64,000 nt of DNA from Dehalococcoidia bacterium UBA1141. Its GTDB lineage: Bacteria > Chloroflexota > Dehalococcoidia > Lucifugimonadales > UBA3495. The notes beneath the pieces were generated by a model. That model ran no database searches. It worked only from the letters and a program-made list of their open reading frames with translations, and was not told where the DNA came from. Shown here piece after piece: positions 32,510 through 51,900 of the stretch. The translations under genes were made by a program, and so were the position numbers. The first letter of the stretch is position 1; each line of letters starts with the position of its first letter. The stretch spans positions 118,385 to 182,384 of the forward strand of contig DCAE01000109.1 in NCBI GenBank assembly GCA_002311385.1, written 5' to 3'.

Positions 32510-33163
32510 ATGACCCAGCCAGTTCAGCCCTGGGAGCAAGGTACTAGCCCTGTTAGGGTAGCCGTATGGTACGACTACATTTGACCCTGGTGCTACGTCG
32601 GCCTGGAAAGAGTCGACAAGCTGGCCAAAGAGTACGATATCAAGGTGGAGGGGCGGGCCTACCTCCTGCGTCCCGATACCCCCAAAGAGGGATCGCCTAG
32701 GCCACCCCGGCCCGGCGAAACCGAGGATGAATTGTCCGACCCACTGCGCAGTCAAGCCAGTGAAGCTGGCCTAATCATGCGCCCTCCCTCGGTAACCCCC
32801 AACACAATGTATGCGCTTCAGGCCACCGAGTATGCCCAGCAGCAAGGCTTGTTCATGGAGTTTCACCACGCCGCCTACGTGGCGTTCTGGGAGAACCGCC
32901 AGGACTTGGGCGATTTGGCCGTTATAGAAGAAGTGGGGCGGGAGGTTGGGTTAAATACCAAGGAAATGATGGAGCGGTTGGAAAGCAACCACTACGAAGA
33001 AGCAGTGATGGGCCAGTACCAGGAAGCATTGCAGTACGGCATCAGCGGCATTCCTACTTTTTTGGTCGGGAATCTGATGTTCACCGGTGCCCACCCCTAC
33101 GACATTTTCAAATCCGCCATGGGGCGGTTGCTGTCGCCCGAGGAACCGCCGGCGTCAAGCTAG
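32510..33163 (+). CDS. DsbA/FrnE-like thiol-disulfide oxidoreductase, candidate selenoprotein (U-P-W-C)
   Basis: ATG 32510 (GGGAG upstream) is in frame with ORF 32645..33163 through a single TGA at 32582..32584. The context VAVWYDYI-U-PWCYVG is the DsbA-family CxxC strand. The C-terminus carries GISGIPTF. Confidence 0.75.
32597..32617 (+). promoter_or_regulatory. SECIS-like hairpin 12 nt after UGA
   Basis: GUCGGC - CUGGAAAGA - GUCGAC, 6 bp including one G-U pair. Confidence 0.45.
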
Positions 33164-37448: not shown

Positions 37449-38182
37449 TTATTTTCGGGCCAGAACTTCTACCGCTACCACGGCCTGATTCTTCGTGCGA
37501 GCGTTTCGGAATGTGCGTAGTACGGCAGCGTCTTTGAAGCCTGCTTGGCGGAACTCCTGAAGGAAGACTACGCCCTCCTTGGCTCCAGCCACTCAAGCAA
37601 ACCAATTCTCAGGTGTTGGTTCTACTTTCTCTGAACCGGCTTCCCGCAGAACAAGCTCCGCCGCAAATACGCATCCTCCAGGCTTCACCACTCGGGCAAG
37701 CTCTGTGAATATCTTTGAACGTTCCGAGTTCAAGTTGAATATCCCATTAACCAACGCCACATCTACGGAGAGATCTTCCAAGGGCAGGCTTTCTGCGTCA
37801 GAGTGAAATATCTTGATATTGGTGGCCCCGGATTCCAGCACGGCCTGTTCCATGCTCGATAGCATCGCCGAACTAAAATCCACAGCCAGTACTTGACCTT
37901 GGGGCCCAACACGCCCAGCGGCAATGATGGAGTCCAATCCTGCGCCGGAGCCCAAATCCAATACCGTCGCTCTTGATGGAATCTCCGCCAACAAGGACAG
38001 GTTAGAGACGCCAGCGAATGCGTCTACAGCCACCGCGGGCAACCCCCTGGCGGGATAGCGCCGACACTCTCGGCTAAATCCCGGCCAACGGGGAACGGAT
38101 GGTCCTCATCAGGGTGTTGAGCAGCCCTGCTATATGCTTCTCGAACGCCCTCTCTAAGACCCGAAACATTTATTTCATTCAT
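37449..38182 (-). CDS. ArsM-like class I SAM methyltransferase, candidate selenoprotein, also carrying a one-base frameshift
   Basis: The track ORF 37593..38042 continues in frame past TGA 37595..37593 for 47 codons to TAA 37451..37449 (PENWFA-U-VAGAKEGVVFLQEFRQAGF...). The N-terminal 47 codons from ATG 38182 (MNEINVSGLREGVREAYSRAAQHPDEDHPFPVGRDLAESVGAIPPGG) are shifted at a G5 run (38043..38047 on the + strand). SAM motif VLDLGSGAGLD. Confidence 0.7.
37560..37580 (-). promoter_or_regulatory. SECIS-like hairpin 12 nt after UGA
   Basis: AAGGAGG - GCGUAGU - CUUCCUU, 7 bp including one G-U pair. Confidence 0.5.
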
Positions 38183-40242: not shown

Positions 40243-40561
40243 TCAAATTCTCTCCTTGAATATTTTAAGAGCGCTGCACTTAGGGTACGCCCTCACAGGA
40301 GATATTAACACAGAGTCCCAGCCTCAAGTCAGTGGACAAGCATCTCCGCCGACGCTACCATGCCTTCACATTGGCTACTGGAGATTAGATCGCAGGCTGA
40401 AGAATACTGGCCGGAGAATCCAGCCGGGAACGGGTGTAAGATCCAGCACTTCCCAACACCGGCCATGATTCTTGCTTTCAATACCAATCCCACTGGCCGA
40501 TCCTGCCGTAAGAAATGTTGAAATAATATTGCCCCAAATTTTCGATAACAGGAGCGATGCA

Positions 40562-41662
40562 ATGGGAAGTTCCATAAGAGGTAATCGTAGTATCACAGCC
40601 GTTTTGTTACTGGTGCTCTTTGGGCTATTCTTGGGAATAGCGTGCACGGGTCCGGCGGGTCCGGCAGGTGTCCAAGGGCCCCAAGGGGCTGCCGGCGAGC
40701 AGGGGCCTCAGGGTATCGCCGGTCCCCAAGGGCCAGCAGGAGTTGCGGCACAGGCAAGCGCCGCAATTTCTAATCAGCAATCGCAGCAATCCGAAGAAAC
40801 CGAAAACGAGAACGAAAATTCAGCATATGGTAAACCGACTATCTGGGGGGATCAGCCGGCCTACGGGATAAGCTTCAGCTCCCCCAATGGAATTGCGATA
40901 GATTCATCGGACAACGTATACGTCACCGAATTTCGCGGGAACCGGGTGCAAAAATTTAGTTTCGATGGAGTCTTGGTAGGGCGGTGGGGCTCGGAAGGAA
41001 GCGAAGATGGTCAATTTCAGAATCCAACGGGAATCGCCATTGATGGCGAAGGCAACGTTTATATCTCCGAGAGCGGCAACCACCGTGTGCAGAAATTCGA
41101 CTCAGACGGCAATTGGATCACTTCATGAGGGTCGCAAAGGTCGGGCGAAGGAGAATTTCTTTCTGCGATGGTTATAGCTATCGATTCCGATAGCCGCCTC
41201 TAGGTGAGCGATTGGGGAAATGACCGTATTCAAGTTTTTGATTCCAATGGCGCATATTTGGATAGCTGGGGGTTGAGTGGAAAAGAGGAAGGCCAGTTGT
41301 TCACCCCCACTGGGGTCAAGGTAGATAGCGAGGGCAATGTTTGGGTCGTTGACCGAGGCAACAACCGGGTCCAGAAATTTACCCGGGATGGCGAGTTTCT
41401 GGCCACGTGGGGCGCCGCAGGCGACGACCAAGGCCAATTTGGAGTTCCAACCAGCATCGCCTTTGATAGCGACGGCAACTTTTATGTCTCCGAGGTGGAG
41501 AATTCACGGGTGCAGATATTCAATTCGGAAGGGGAATACATATCCGATCTTGCTTCGGCGTCACTCTCCAATCCCCACGGCTTGGCTTTCGACAGCAATG
41601 GAGACCTCTATGTGGCTGATACGGGAAACAATTTCATAAAGAAATTCAGCTTGGCAGATTAG
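40562..41662 (+). pseudogene. secreted collagen-like (Gly-X-Y) / NHL-repeat protein interrupted by two in-frame stops
   Basis: ATG 40562 (AGGAG upstream), signal peptide ...LLLVLFGLFLGIAC, GPAGPAGVQGPQGAAGEQGPQGIAGPQGPAG, then NHL repeats. One frame runs throughout, with TGA 41126..41128 and TAG 41201..41203 inside repeat consensus positions. Confidence 0.7.
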
Positions 41663-46836: not shown

Positions 46837-48890
46837 ATGAGAGGTTACGTTAATCCCATGAGATTCAAGTTTCCGATACTCGCCCTATTGATGACACTGG
46901 CAGTAGGTATACTTGCCGCTTGCGGCGGCGATGCCACCGCCACGCCGACCACCGTTGAGGTGGAAAAAATCGTAGAAGTTGAAAAGATTGTCGAGGTCGA
47001 AAAGATTGTAGAAGTAACGCCGACCCTCGTGAGTTGACCGTCTCAGTGGGTTCCGGCCGAGACACTGAGGTAGTTATAGCTTTCTTGCCTTCGATGCTCA
47101 GCGTTCGAGCCGGGGACACCGTTACTTGGAAGCTGAACGCAGATGAGATTCACACCGTTTCGTTCTTGAGCGGCGCACCAACACCGAGGTTTGAAAGGCC
47201 AATTCCGGATGCCGGACCCACTGACTTTATGCTAAACCCCCAGGCTGCGTTCCCCACACGGGCGCCCGGAGCCCCTGTGGAGACTTGCAGCGGCACCGGA
47301 TTCGCCAGCTCGGGCACGATGTCCGATGTTCCCCCGGCTCCGGGAGCACCACCCAACAATGAGTTTAGCCTAATATTTGACACCCCTGGAACCTACGATT
47401 TCGTTTGCATCATCCACCCGTTCCAGATCGGAACGATTGAAGTCTTGGCCTCAAACGCCCAAGACGTGCCTTCGCAGGCTGACATAGACGCCCAAGCAGA
47501 GGCGCAATTAGCGCCGTTACTTGTGGAGTTGGAGCAGATCAAGCAAAGCTCCCCGATCGCGGTCACCCAAGAGGCCGGTCCCAATGGCACTACTATATGG
47601 CACGAGCAAGCAGGAACTCGTGGCCTCAGCAATTTCACCGAAGTTTTCGAATTCTTGGCCAAGGACATCACAATTCAGGAAGGGGATACGGTAGTCTGGA
47701 CCTCACCCACCTTCCACACTGTGACATTCCATCCCGGACAGGACGCACCTGAGTTTGTGGTTCCAGAACCACAAGATGCCGGACCTCCATTGCTTAGGAT
47801 AAATCCGGCCGTGTTATTCCCGGTGAAGCCGGCCTCCGAATTTAATGGAACCGGATATTGGAACTCTGGCACCATCGGTCTGGCCGCACCTTTTGGCACA
47901 AACTTTAGCATGACGTTCAGTCAAACCGGGTCATTCGATTATATCTGCGCTCTGCACGTGTCGATGGGCATGGAAGGCTCAGTCACTGTGGTCGAGCGCC
48001 AAGCGCCCCACACAGCGTTGCTGGACGCGAATTTATTCGAATACCCCGAAGGTCTGGCTATTGACGGCGAAGGCAACATCTACGCTGGCATGGCTCCCGC
48101 CGGCGAGATTAAGAAAATCACCCCGTCTGGCGACGTAGCCACCTACGCCCAGTTGCCAGCTCCTGGAGCCGGTTTCTTGGTTGGCATGGACTTCGACGCC
48201 GCGGGCGACCTTTATGCCGCCATGTCTTCCTTCGACCCCGAGACCCATGGGATATGGAAGATTTCAGATGACGGCGCCACCACCGAGTTATTCGACAGCC
48301 TACCGGTAGCAGGATTCCCCAACGTTCTCGCATTTAATAGCGATGGCGAGATGTTCGTCACCGACACCATCGGTGGAGGTATATGGCAGGTAGATTCGCA
48401 AGGCAACGTCAGCACGTGGGCCATGGACGAATCCATGATTGGGGCCATTCCCCCAGGCCCGCTGGGTTTCCCCATAGGCGCAAATGGCCTAGCCTTTGAC
48501 GAAGGCAAGACATACGTTTACGTCAGTGTTACCGATAAGAGCCGCATCGTCCGCATTCTCGTAGAAGAGGACGGCTCCGCAGGCGATGTTGAGGTCTTCG
48601 TTGAGGACACGGCCAACCTGGGCGGCCCCGACGGCCTGACGTTTGGCCCATCTGGCACTCTATACGTCGCCCTCTTCGGAAGCGACGGGGTGGCGATGGT
48701 GTCCCCAAGTGGTGAAATCAGCCCAATCGTGTCCGGAGGACGACTACAGAATCCTTCTGACGTCAAGTTTGGCATTGGCGATGACAGTAACACGCTGTAT
48801 ATCGCCAACTTCGCAGCGGCCCGCCTACTCGGCTTGGTGCCCGGCACGCCCCTGCCCGGAGTGCTAATGACGCATATAGCCACTCCTTAG
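46837..48890 (+). CDS. lipoprotein with two cupredoxin-like domains and an SMP-30/strictosidine-synthase-like beta-propeller; signal peptide separated by a frameshift
   Basis: ORF 46837..47037 encodes a signal peptide plus lipobox (LAVGILAACGG) and (VEVEKI)n. It is offset by one nt from ORF 47034..48890. Type-1 Cu-like ligand patterns are CIIHPFQIG and CALHVSMGMEGS. The C-terminal half has propeller-like repeats. Confidence 0.65.
46954..47016 (+). repeat. 18-nt coding tandem repeat, 3.5 units (VEVEKI)
   Basis: GTTGAGGTGGAAAAAATC / GTAGAAGTTGAAAAGATT / GTCGAGGTCGAAAAGATT / GTAGAAGTA. The units differ at several codon positions, yet each full unit encodes the same hexapeptide VEVEKI. Confidence 0.9.
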
Positions 48891-48922
48891 GGTTCCACAA
48901 ATGGTTGTTAGATAGTCCCATA

Positions 48923-48965
48923 GGGCGGCCTCGTGAGCGTGCGAGGCCGCCCTACCCTTTTATTT
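48923..48965 (+). terminator. rho-independent terminator
   Basis: GGGCGGCCTCG - loop - CGAGGCCGCCC followed by TACCCTTTTATTT. Confidence 0.8.
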
Positions 48966-48990
48966 GAAACACGTGATAGAACAAAGCTTG

Positions 48991-51900
48991 ATGAAAGAAC
49001 GACAGCAACAAGCTCCGATGCAGACTGAGCAAAACATTACTCCATCGATCAAAACCATACGCTTCGCCCTTGGCGCTGCCGCTGTGGTCGTGTTTTTGGC
49101 CTTGGCTTTGCTGGCTACCTGCGGCGGAGATTCTCTTGATACAAACGCCGACTTACTTCCCACGCCGGCCAGCACGCTGACCGAGGCAACCATTACGCCT
49201 AGCGCCGAACCGACACCCCACCAGGTTAATACGCCGGGTCCAAGTGCTCATGAAGGCGACGAAGGACTGGTCTTGGGCCAAGAGACCGGCGAGAGCGTTT
49301 ACCAAGGCGCCAGTTGCCAGGCTGATGCGCCGGTCAGGAACTTCGACGTAGCGGCGATAAACATCGAGATTTCCCTAAACCGTTTCCTGGATTTCGACCC
49401 TATAGGCCGAATGTACGTCTTGGAACAGGACCTGCAGCGGGCAAGGGGAGAGGAAGCCCAAAACCGGACGGCCAGGCAAGACCAAGCGGAGCCTGCAGTA
49501 TCAGTTGGATTGCAGGGAGACGCCATCCAGCCATTGACTTTGCGGGTCAATCAAGGTGATTGCCTGAGGCTCACCCTTCGCAACGGATTGGAAGACGGAC
49601 AGGCTGCCAGTCTGCACCTCCACGGTTCTTCGCAGCACATGGCCGATAGTGGCGCTCCGGCAGTGGCGGCCAACACGGAGGCGGTGGCTCTTCCCGGCGC
49701 ATCGGTGACCTACGAATGGATGGTGGAAGACGACCAACAGGAGGGGACCCACTATTTTCATAGCCACGGCGATACGCGCGAGCAGACCAGCCATGGCTTG
49801 TTTGGGGCGGTAATCGTGGAACCCAAGGACTCTCTCCACTTGGATCCGCTGACCGGAGGAGAATTGAGAAGCGGCTGGTCAGCCGTGATTAGGGACAGCA
49901 CGGGTAGTGATTTCCGGGAGTTCGCAATCTACTACCATGAGATTGGCAACGAAGCCTTCACCATCCAGAACAAAGACGCATCCCGAGGGTTCGGCCTCCG
50001 CGGGCGTGCGGTTCCCTTCGTTGACGGCCTGACTGGCGCCTACAAACCCGGCGGCAGGGCCATGAACTATCGCAGCGAGCCCTTCCTCAACCGCATGGAA
50101 TTGCAGAAAGACACCGTGGGCAGCTTCGACCCTTCCCAGGCCTATATCTCCTACACATTTGGCGACCCGGCCACCCCCATAGCCAGAAGCTACTTGGGAG
50201 ACCCGGTAAAACAGCGGGTGATTCATGGCGGATCAGAGGTGTTTCATGTGCACCACGTCCACGGCGGAGCGATACGGTGGCGACGGCAACCCGGTGTTGA
50301 ACCGACCAACTTCGACACCGGCCTGAACAAGTTTCCGCCCCTGCTGCCTGAAGCAACAGCCCGGATAGACTCCCAAGCCGTGGGGCCAGCGGAAAATTAC
50401 GATGTGGAAAACGAGTGCGGCAGCGGCGGTTGTCAGCAGAGTGTGGGCGACTTCTTGGCCCATTGTCATGTGGCCCACCACTATGTTGCTGGAATGTGGA
50501 TGATTTGGCGAGTCCAGAACACATTGCAAGACGGCATCGTGTCCCAAGACGGTCTTCCTCCGTTGATCGAGTTGCCGGACCGAAACGGTCTGGTTGCGCC
50601 CGCTGTGACGTCGGACAAGCTGGCAGATTGGATCGAAGCTCAACTGCCTCCGCCAGGGAAACCTAAGGGCTACGACGCCTCTGTGTTGGACTGGGCAAAG
50701 GATGGTGACCTATATCTGAATGAACCGGATACGGAACTAGAGTGGGCCTATTTTAAGTCTCCCAACCCTGGACAGCGGCCCGCCTTGTACTTCCACCCGC
50801 TAACCGGCAAGCTGGCTTATCCATATCTAAGGCCCCATCTCGGCAAACGGCCCCCCTTTGCGCCCAACCACGGTCCGGCGCCATTCTTGGAACCCTTCCG
50901 CAATGGTACCGACCCACCGGAGCCGGGGCAGAACGGCCCGTGGAGTCTTTGCCCTTCGGGAACTAAACAAAAAGAATTCGCCATTCACGCAATCAACTTG
51001 CCCATCATTCTAAACCAGAGAGCCAACCTGGTGGACCCGGTGGGTCAACTCTACGTGCTCAAGGAGCAAGAAGCGGCGGTGCGGGCCAACAACCGGCTTA
51101 AGCAGCCCCTGGCAATCCGGGCCAACGCTGGCCAAGACTACGTGGATGTGGTTTTCAAGAGCGAGCTGGAAGACACGGGTGAGAACAATTTTTTCAGCAA
51201 GGTGAATATTCACATCCACTTTGTGCAGTTCGACATCCAGGGCAGCGACGGCGTGAACACCGGCTTCAATTACGAAACGTCGGTCCGCCCGTTCACCGTG
51301 GAGGGAGAGACCCTGTCCTCGCTAGTTCAGGCCGGAGAAGATACTTTGGCCCTGGGCAGTGCTGACCGGTTCCAACCTAGCGCATTGGTGGGTGTGGGTA
51401 TGGACCAAGACCGGACTTTTGAAGCCCGCCGGATTCGGGCCATTGAGAATAATTCGCTCACTTTTGAAGAACCCCTGAAGTTTGACCATGACCGGGGTGA
51501 GATTGTTAGCACCGAGTTTGTGTGGTACCGATGGTTCCCTGACGTCCAATTCGGCACTGCCTATTTCCACGACCACGTCGCAGGGCTGACGTCGTGGCGG
51601 CATGGCCTCTTCGGTGCGCTGATTGCCGAACCCCCGATGCTACCTATCACGACCCAAAGACCGGCGAGGAGTTGTCCAGCGAACCTTTGGTGGACATCCG
51701 GACCAATCAGCCCGTTTCCGTAGACCTGACGGGAAGCTTCCGGGAAGCGGTGCTGTTTATCCAAGACGACAACCCGTTGACCAATGTCGGCCTCTCCAGC
51801 GGCAGCGCCTACAACCTTCGGGTGGAGCCTATGGAGAGAAGAGGCGGCGTGCCTTCGGAGCTATTCAACAGCCGGGTCCACGGTGACCCGGAGACACCCA

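Follow-up and report, generated by a model that had tools for sequence, protein, structure and literature searches.

A probable selenoprotein methyltransferase of ArsM-like fold, present as a frame-disrupted copy in a Dehalococcoidia genome

Introduction

The arsenite methyltransferase ArsM binds As(III) and monomethylated As(III) (MAs(III)) through Cys174 and Cys224 (residues are numbered here as in CmArsM). The GOS selenoproteome includes a selenocysteine (Sec)-containing 'arsenite (S-adenosyl)methyltransferase' (PMC2398784), which is present in 39 organisms in a bacterial survey (PMC5029168) and is listed in two reviews (PMC9312934, PMC13188914). The subject of this study is a gene of related type on the minus strand of a 64,000-nucleotide stretch of the genome of Dehalococcoidia bacterium UBA1141 (contig DCAE01000109.1, positions 118,385 to 182,384; hereafter the window). 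The gene has an in-frame TGA where ArsM has its third arsenic-binding cysteine, and its frame is broken near the 5' end.

For the catalogued Sec enzyme, PMC13188914 gives the motif UxxG, with credit to Fomenko et al. 2007; the same paper credits a double selenoprotein, the methyltransferase/UXPK-star family NF047649, to Haft & Tolstoy 2025. Methyltransferases are not mentioned in the deep-Sep and BSepDB papers.

Results and discussion

An in-frame UGA is conserved across the family

The central coding segment of the gene (37596..38057, minus strand; 154 codons, YPARGLPAVAVDAFAGVSN...NGIFNLN...PENWFA) encodes a class I S-adenosylmethionine (SAM) methyltransferase core, to which Pfam assigns only generic class I domains (Methyltransf_31/25/11 and Ubie_methyltran). 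The open reading frame (ORF) found there (38042..37593, minus strand) is the second frame of the gene and ends at ...PENWFA-TGA, with the TGA at 37595..37593. Past this codon the frame stays open for 47 codons and a stop (37449..37592, minus strand). The peptide encoded after the TGA is VAGAKEGVVFLQEFRQAGFKDAAVLRTFRNARTKNQAVVAVEVLARK (VAGAKEG...EVLARK); the extension contains no second TGA, and the protein would end with ...EVLARK at the TAA at 37451..37449. When the minus strand was re-read, the coordinates and strings of the initial annotation were all found to be correct, including the TGA with its 47 open codons and the segments AGVSN and NGIFNL in the protein.

Searching proteins with the stitched sequence gave 2872 matches, and the best 120 clusters were inspected at the Sec column. 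In 109 of these the database entry ends exactly at ...W-F-A. Three clusters carry Trp at the column (P0010, P0017 and P0018, all Joint Genome Institute (JGI) gene calls), three carry Cys (P0013, P0016 and P0020), one carries Gly, from a genuine GGG codon, and one carries Arg. P0010 (locus L044) is the sole Trp case for which the DNA was read, and its codon is TGA; it was evidently called with a code in which UGA is Trp, masking a selenoprotein. The Cys-coding loci L040 and L042 have TGC or TGT at the site (TGC in L040).

A scan of species-representative genomes yielded 37 loci from at least six phyla (Chloroflexota, Planctomycetota, Acidobacteriota, Rokubacteria, Methylomirabilia, Thermodesulfobacteriota and others), and every scanned locus that covers the site has TGA followed by [IVT]-[AGST]-G-A. 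In total, 35 orthologous loci besides the window have the in-frame TGA (L001, L002, L003-L033 and L044). The extension is 47 codons long in 29 of 35 loci (34 orthologous loci and the window), and its pairwise diversity at the three codon positions is 0.26/0.20/0.59, which indicates that it is translated and constrained. An AF2 model of the Cys homologue P0013 (pLDDT 93.3, pTM 0.91) places the residues that follow the Cys in a helix (206-215) and two strands (220-227 and 237-245), the last two of the fold; a stop at the UGA would therefore leave an incomplete domain.

Because the TGA is shared by orthologues, the extension is under purifying selection, a hairpin 3' of the codon is conserved and rare homologues have Cys instead, the UGA is predicted to code for Sec. 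The same proposal in the initial annotation is thus borne out by the Sec/Cys homologue pairs (35 TGA loci and the rare Cys forms), the conserved extension and the hairpin, and recurrence of TGA, extension and hairpin together in 35 orthologous loci is more than would be expected by chance. Were the UGA instead a real stop, the product would be a 197-residue methyltransferase, and the 47 codons would be untranslated or would belong to a separate small ORF starting from the GTG at 37592. Gene callers do end the protein there in more than 90% of database entries, and the GTG lies directly after the TGA. However, the downstream codons are kept in frame across phyla with a coding pattern of substitution, the Cys homologues continue through the site, and the truncated product would be without its last helix and two strands, all of which makes a genuine stop extremely improbable.

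A hairpin follows the UGA

The window sequence can form a SECIS-like hairpin (37560..37580, minus strand) that begins 12 nt past the UGA. Its 5' stem (37580..37573, AAGGAGGG) and 3' stem (37567..37560, UCUUCCUU) form 8 bp, including two G-U pairs, around the loop CGUAG (37572..37568); the alternative of 7 bp and a 7-nt loop given in the initial annotation is also possible. The folding energy of the 71-nt region is -31.2 kcal/mol, versus -22.1 +/- 3.5 kcal/mol for shuffled sequences (z = -2.6). For 34 aligned sequences, RNAalifold predicted a single helix, of 7 bp closed by a 5-nt loop, whose start is 13 nt past the UGA. Pairing is kept in 87.5% of cells, versus 39-66% in registers with the 3' arm displaced by 1-3 nt, and a G is invariant at loop position 2. 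Compensatory changes have arisen twice independently at one pair, from A-U to U-A in L011 and to G-C in L031; the former replaces both Glu by Asp and Phe by Ile. One Cys homologue and the Gly variant have a degraded hairpin.

In the bacterial Sec insertion sequence (SECIS), the upper stem-loop carries a G in its loop and stands at least about 11 nt from the UGA. The position and shape of the hairpin agree with this element.

The fold is ArsM-like, and the other arsenic-binding cysteines are missing

In a phmmer alignment to sequences of the Protein Data Bank (PDB), AFAGVSN lies opposite KFWGCGN, VNGIFNL opposite SNCV[IC]NL and WFA-U-VAGA opposite LGEC[L][AG]GA of algal ArsM. This confirmed the mapping made in the initial annotation: the predicted Sec aligns with CmArsM Cys224, the third As(III)-binding Cys, and the other two cysteines are replaced, Cys72 by Val (AGVSN) and Cys174 by Gly (NGIFNL). 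Both replacements extend across the family, with F[AST]GVS[NSD] in 117 of 120 homologues and NG[ILV][FL]N in 117 of 120. No N-terminal Cys is conserved among the 120 homologues, and Cys44, Cys72 and Cys174 are missing family-wide. The sole near-invariant Cys of the family belongs to the glycine-rich SAM motif, where the window protein has Ser. Because the other catalytic cysteines are missing family-wide, the selenol is the only conserved chalcogen nucleophile, and the earlier deduction that a canonical multi-thiol As(III) site is impossible was judged to be sound. The suggestion of another substrate or mechanism, made in the same annotation, is plausible.

A Foldseek search with the P0013 model gave 13 best PDB matches that are all ArsM or AS3MT (TM-scores 0.60-0.71), and the titles of the matched entries name C72A and C224A mutants and the arsenic binding site. 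With ArsM and AS3MT (NF008823 / PRK11873; PDB 4FS8, 6CX6, 5EVJ and 8XT7), the window family shares the class I SAM fold, an ArsM-type N-terminal extension and a chalcogen nucleophile at Cys224 in an x-x-G-A context (GEC[LV][AG]GA in ArsM). It differs in the three missing cysteines, in the absence of the C-terminal domain (about 245 aa, compared with 370-390 residues in the solved algal chains) and in its own motifs HPFPVGR, FAGVSN, NGIFNLNP and RNARTKN. In addition, the window protein scores 139.3 bits against NF008823, for which the cutoff is 263, and ars gene context was not seen around the family. In fold the window family thus resembles ArsM, but it does not have the set of cysteines by which ArsM is defined.

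Relationship to described selenoprotein families

The catalogued Sec-containing ArsM, assigned by similarity to PRK11873, has one Sec in a UxxG motif, and U-V-A-G in the window protein is the same motif at the same position. This comparison is by description and covers the Sec motif and its position; the window family may be lumped into the catalogued entry. No NCBIfam model gave a score above its cutoff for the window protein. Besides NF008823, the scores were 157.7 bits for NF041537 (cutoff 510), 135.2 for NF047649 (cutoff 460) and 129.4 for NF041536 (cutoff 575).

The layout of a lone Sec at the third Cys site with the other cysteines gone is already present in the described family NF047649. 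P0241, a truncated member of that family (368 bits over profile positions 1-203), has GVGNP and SNGVFNL, with no Cys at 72 or 174, and ends ...NWFQ at the same Sec site. The novelty implied in the initial annotation was consequently overstated, as Sec ArsM-type methyltransferases with UxxG have been in the catalogues since 2007-2008 (PMC2398784, PMC5029168, PMC13188914) and P0241 has the same layout. Unlike NF047649, the window protein has neither a second Sec nor the C-terminal U-x-P-K motif, and its last 22 residues are unmatched by the NF047649 profile. The ArsM/AhpD multi-Sec family NF041537 is the best NCBIfam match for the methyltransferase part (158 bits), and truncated sister sequences end at profile positions 201-203, indicating Sec at the equivalent position. 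The window protein differs from NF041537 and from NF041536, the family with a DUF2284 fusion, in that it has no fused AhpD or DUF2284 domain, has one Sec and comes from an ORF that ends 47 codons past it.

A search of 1.8 billion representatives with a profile of the family gave 776 clusters at E <= 1e-30. Many sister clusters have GVGNP and SNGV[LF]NL and break off at the same Sec site, exactly 45 residues past the NG motif. With the family's own profile, window family members score 200-320 bits and sister sequences 170 or less. The window family is a separate sibling family. It is Sec-dominant (more than 90% of clusters), spans at least six phyla and is uncurated in NCBIfam, and the window gene is a well-supported selenoprotein gene of known type in a large subfamily for which there is no curated NCBIfam model. 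Family members are named 'methyltransferase domain-containing protein' by the National Center for Biotechnology Information (NCBI), and gene callers either cut them at the Sec codon, in more than 90% of entries, or put Trp for UGA. A dedicated family model would correct thousands of annotations; no NCBIfam model rescues the family at present.

One protein from the search of representatives, P0122 (608 aa), is a fusion in which an AhpD-like domain (SPCC) is followed by a canonical ArsM domain (GCGNP, NCVINL and WSCCLGGA) and a second methyltransferase domain that is without Cys174 (SNGALNL) and ends ...IDAWAT at the Sec site. A canonical ArsM domain and a Sec-type domain are therefore joined in a single polypeptide, which links the two.

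The window copy carries a compound lesion

The gene starts at an ATG (38182..38180, minus strand) that opens the frame reading MNEINVSGLREGVREAYSRAAQHPDEDHPFPVGRDLAESVG. This 5' segment (codons 1-41; 38060..38182, minus strand) corresponds to P0001 and P0012 at their N-termini, family motif HPFPVGR included, and is out of frame with the remainder of the gene. The initial annotation attributed the break to a G5 run, which does exist at 38047..38043. However, DNA alignment with L001 and L002 places the frame-disrupting lesion, a net change of -7 nt, at 38049..38059 (minus strand). L001, the closest relative (93% amino acid identity to the window protein), reads GGC TAT CCC GCC GAT TTG CTC AGG GGG TTG at the break, and the window reads GGC gc TAT CCC GCC AGG GGG TTG. 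Two surplus nucleotides (GC) at 38059..38058 are followed by TATCCCGCC, which encodes Y-P-A and is already in the downstream frame, and 9 in-frame nucleotides, which encode D-L-L in relatives, are gone between 38049 and 38048. The 20-nt stretch of the window at the lesion reads GGCGCTATCCCGCCAGGGGG, and an intact gene would be expected to read GGCTATCCCGCC(N9)AGGGGG. Joining the frames at the lesion brings back the family-invariant G-Y-P. The difference in frame that had been noted earlier therefore stands, and the number of out-of-frame codons is 41 rather than the 47 then given. A frameshift in the G5 run was rejected, as one added G gives ...SVGAIPPGGLP... and loses the invariant G-Y-P.

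The window copy is either a recent pseudogene or an assembly error, and as written it is probably non-functional. That the gene is intact in the organism, and the break at 38049..38059 an artefact of assembly or sequencing, is a credible though not the favoured explanation. The gene has no other stop or frameshift beyond the lesion, the protein is 93% identical to the intact environmental copy P0001, and the SECIS hairpin and the extension are both preserved. Nevertheless, the lesion is compound (+2 nt / -9 nt) and outside a homopolymer, unlike typical read errors, and the loss of 9 nt removes DLL, three residues that are found in every aligned homologue. A lesion of this kind is more readily explained by a real mutation than by a read error.

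Proposed function

The observations are very likely to be explained jointly by a SAM-dependent methyltransferase of about 245 residues with an ArsM fold, a selenoprotein, which is present in the window as a frame-broken copy. The UGA at 37595..37593 would be decoded as Sec under the direction of the in-coding hairpin 12-13 nt downstream, which would act as a bacterial-type SECIS, presumably bound by SelB. Translation would continue for 47 codons, which would complete the Rossmann-like fold with its last helix and two beta strands. A soft metalloid or chalcogen substrate may then be bound to the selenolate by one covalent Se-X bond; candidates are a species for which one ligand is enough, such as dimethylarsenite, and a selenide- or sulfide-derived Se-Se or Se-S adduct. 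Such a bond could position the lone pair of the substrate against the methyl group of SAM, and release or reduction might occur via an external thiol or a thioredoxin-type partner.

Several observations weigh against this combined reading. The Cys homologue L042 retains the hairpin, and the hairpin lies inside a highly conserved peptide (KEG..AFL), so that the protein could explain much of its conservation. The covariation evidence is thin because of this overlap between the helix and K-E-G..A-F-L; double changes occur at one pair only, and 7 of 500 shuffles reach the covariation score. No Rfam SECIS match was found, whether the 300 nt surrounding the UGA were searched by e-value or the whole window at the gathering threshold. 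The full protein cannot be made from the window sequence as written. Scans of the 64-kb window with Aragorn, Rfam and NCBIfam (on 19 large ORFs) found no selA, selB, selD or tRNA-Sec, a stretch of this length being too short for their absence to be informative. None of the neighbouring genes in 32 loci recurs across phyla, the partners being lineage-limited only, and the substrate and chemistry are conjectural.

Within this reading, it is possible, albeit tentatively so, that the family is a distinct selenoenzyme class, in which a stand-alone ArsM scaffold with a single selenol uses one Se-X bond or a Se-methyl-selenocysteine route and does not methylate arsenite. Two other functions were weighed against it. 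The protein could be an orthodox ArsM that contains Sec and methylates As(III) for arsenic detoxification. In its favour, ArsM and AS3MT come first among both structural and sequence matches, several homologues bear the JGI annotation arsenite methyltransferase, and in P0122 a canonical ArsM domain is fused to a sister domain that is Cys-less and terminated at the Sec site. The 'arsenite methyltransferase' Sec family of the literature also shares UxxG (PMC13188914). However, Val and Gly occupy the Cys72 and Cys174 positions in all 120 close homologues, the N-terminal Cys is not conserved, the NF008823 score of 139 is under the cutoff of 263, the ArsM C-terminal domain is missing, and no recurrent ars genes were found beside the methyltransferase in 32 loci, among the 25 of 40 neighbour families listed. 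The loss of Cys174 in particular makes orthodox arsenite methylation an improbable function.

The Sec may, on the other hand, not bind the substrate at all, and could be a redox or regulatory switch or relay a methyl group via a Se-methyl-Sec intermediate. The Sec is in a loop modelled with lower confidence and probably mobile (residues 191-200, mean pLDDT 61), sister families are fused to AhpD-like redox domains (NF041537; P0122), and a selenolate is, in general chemistry, an excellent nucleophile towards SAM. Yet there is no conserved partner Cys with which a selenenylsulfide could form, the near-invariant Cys of the SAM motif being Ser in the window, and the aligned Cys224 of ArsM is a direct substrate ligand. 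Such a role is considered unlikely, if somewhat less so than orthodox arsenic detoxification.

The family represents a natural experiment in which an ArsM scaffold has been reduced to one selenol, and the identity of its substrate would reveal what the Cys224-equivalent position contributes alone. The substrate could also bring to light a so far unrecognised way in which soil and aquatic bacteria, for example Acidobacteriota, Chloroflexota and Planctomycetota, methylate metalloids or chalcogens.

Gene context across loci

In 6 of 32 loci (L006, L007, L008, L013, L014 and L022), the gene just upstream on the same strand encodes a short Cation_efflux protein, MerR-type regulators are encoded downstream in 4 of 32 (L006, L007, L008 and L022), and an ArsR-rhodanese is found in two loci, one of which is the Cys form L040. 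As clues to function these neighbours are weak hints. The Cation_efflux proteins, from Acidobacteriota and Rokubacteria, have about 140-220 aa and no cytoplasmic domain, and their genes lie about 100-300 nt upstream; the copy in L013 ends ...GRTCCRD.

At L040 (4171..6738), the Cys form (TGC) is directly downstream of genes for an ArsR-HTH/rhodanese fusion and a class-V, cysteine-desulfurase-like aminotransferase. The overlapping or abutting arrangement of these genes hints at sulfur or selenium trafficking. The Gly form P0022 (L045 and L046; codon GGG) adjoins genes for HdrB/C-like CCG-domain and ferredoxin-domain proteins and a radical SAM gene, and this branch may be neofunctionalised or inactive.

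Selenocysteine use by the host and the window neighbourhood

A search with the AlaS encoded in the window assigns the stretch to Dehalococcoidia; it is 79% identical to that of OY761986.2, a Dehalococcoidia contig that also carries L002. An exact 24-mer had no match in genome_contigs. Synteny between the window and L002 extends over genes for ArgS, the methyltransferase, two ABC exporters, a DsbA-like protein, a histidine kinase/response regulator and a HAD hydrolase. In L002 (11164..12864), two transposase ORFs (DUF772 / DDE_Tnp_1) are inserted between the methyltransferase and the ABC exporter pair, whereas in the window the spacing between them is only 464 nt.

A second candidate selenoprotein gene, DsbA/FrnE-like (32511..33163, plus strand), lies 5 kb from the methyltransferase and has an in-frame TGA at 32582..32584. 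Its predicted product, MTQPV...VAVWYDYI-U-PWCYVGLERV..., has a UxxC redox motif, which is the motif of a known selenoprotein family, and ORF callers give only 32645..33163 of the gene. A weak hairpin 12 nt past this UGA (GUCGGCCU GGAA AG-AGUCGAC) is no better than those of shuffled sequences. The TGA is kept in L002, near locus coordinate 17917, and because of this conserved U-P-W-C gene the host Dehalococcoidia lineage probably decodes Sec. In a scan of the window for genes with an in-frame TGA, only the methyltransferase and the DsbA-like gene were convincing. What the window itself mainly shows is the use of Sec by this lineage, in two such genes, and the disruption of its methyltransferase copy.

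Two adjacent large ORFs of 618 aa and 919 aa occupy 47034..51723 (plus strand). Weak matches of the former to plastocyanin and amicyanin models suggest cupredoxin domains, and part of it is ScyD/ScyE-like; the latter is multicopper-oxidase-like with weak similarity to MnxG. A 218-aa ORF at 40472..41128 (plus strand) combines a collagen-like triple-helix repeat with NHL/beta-propeller repeats.

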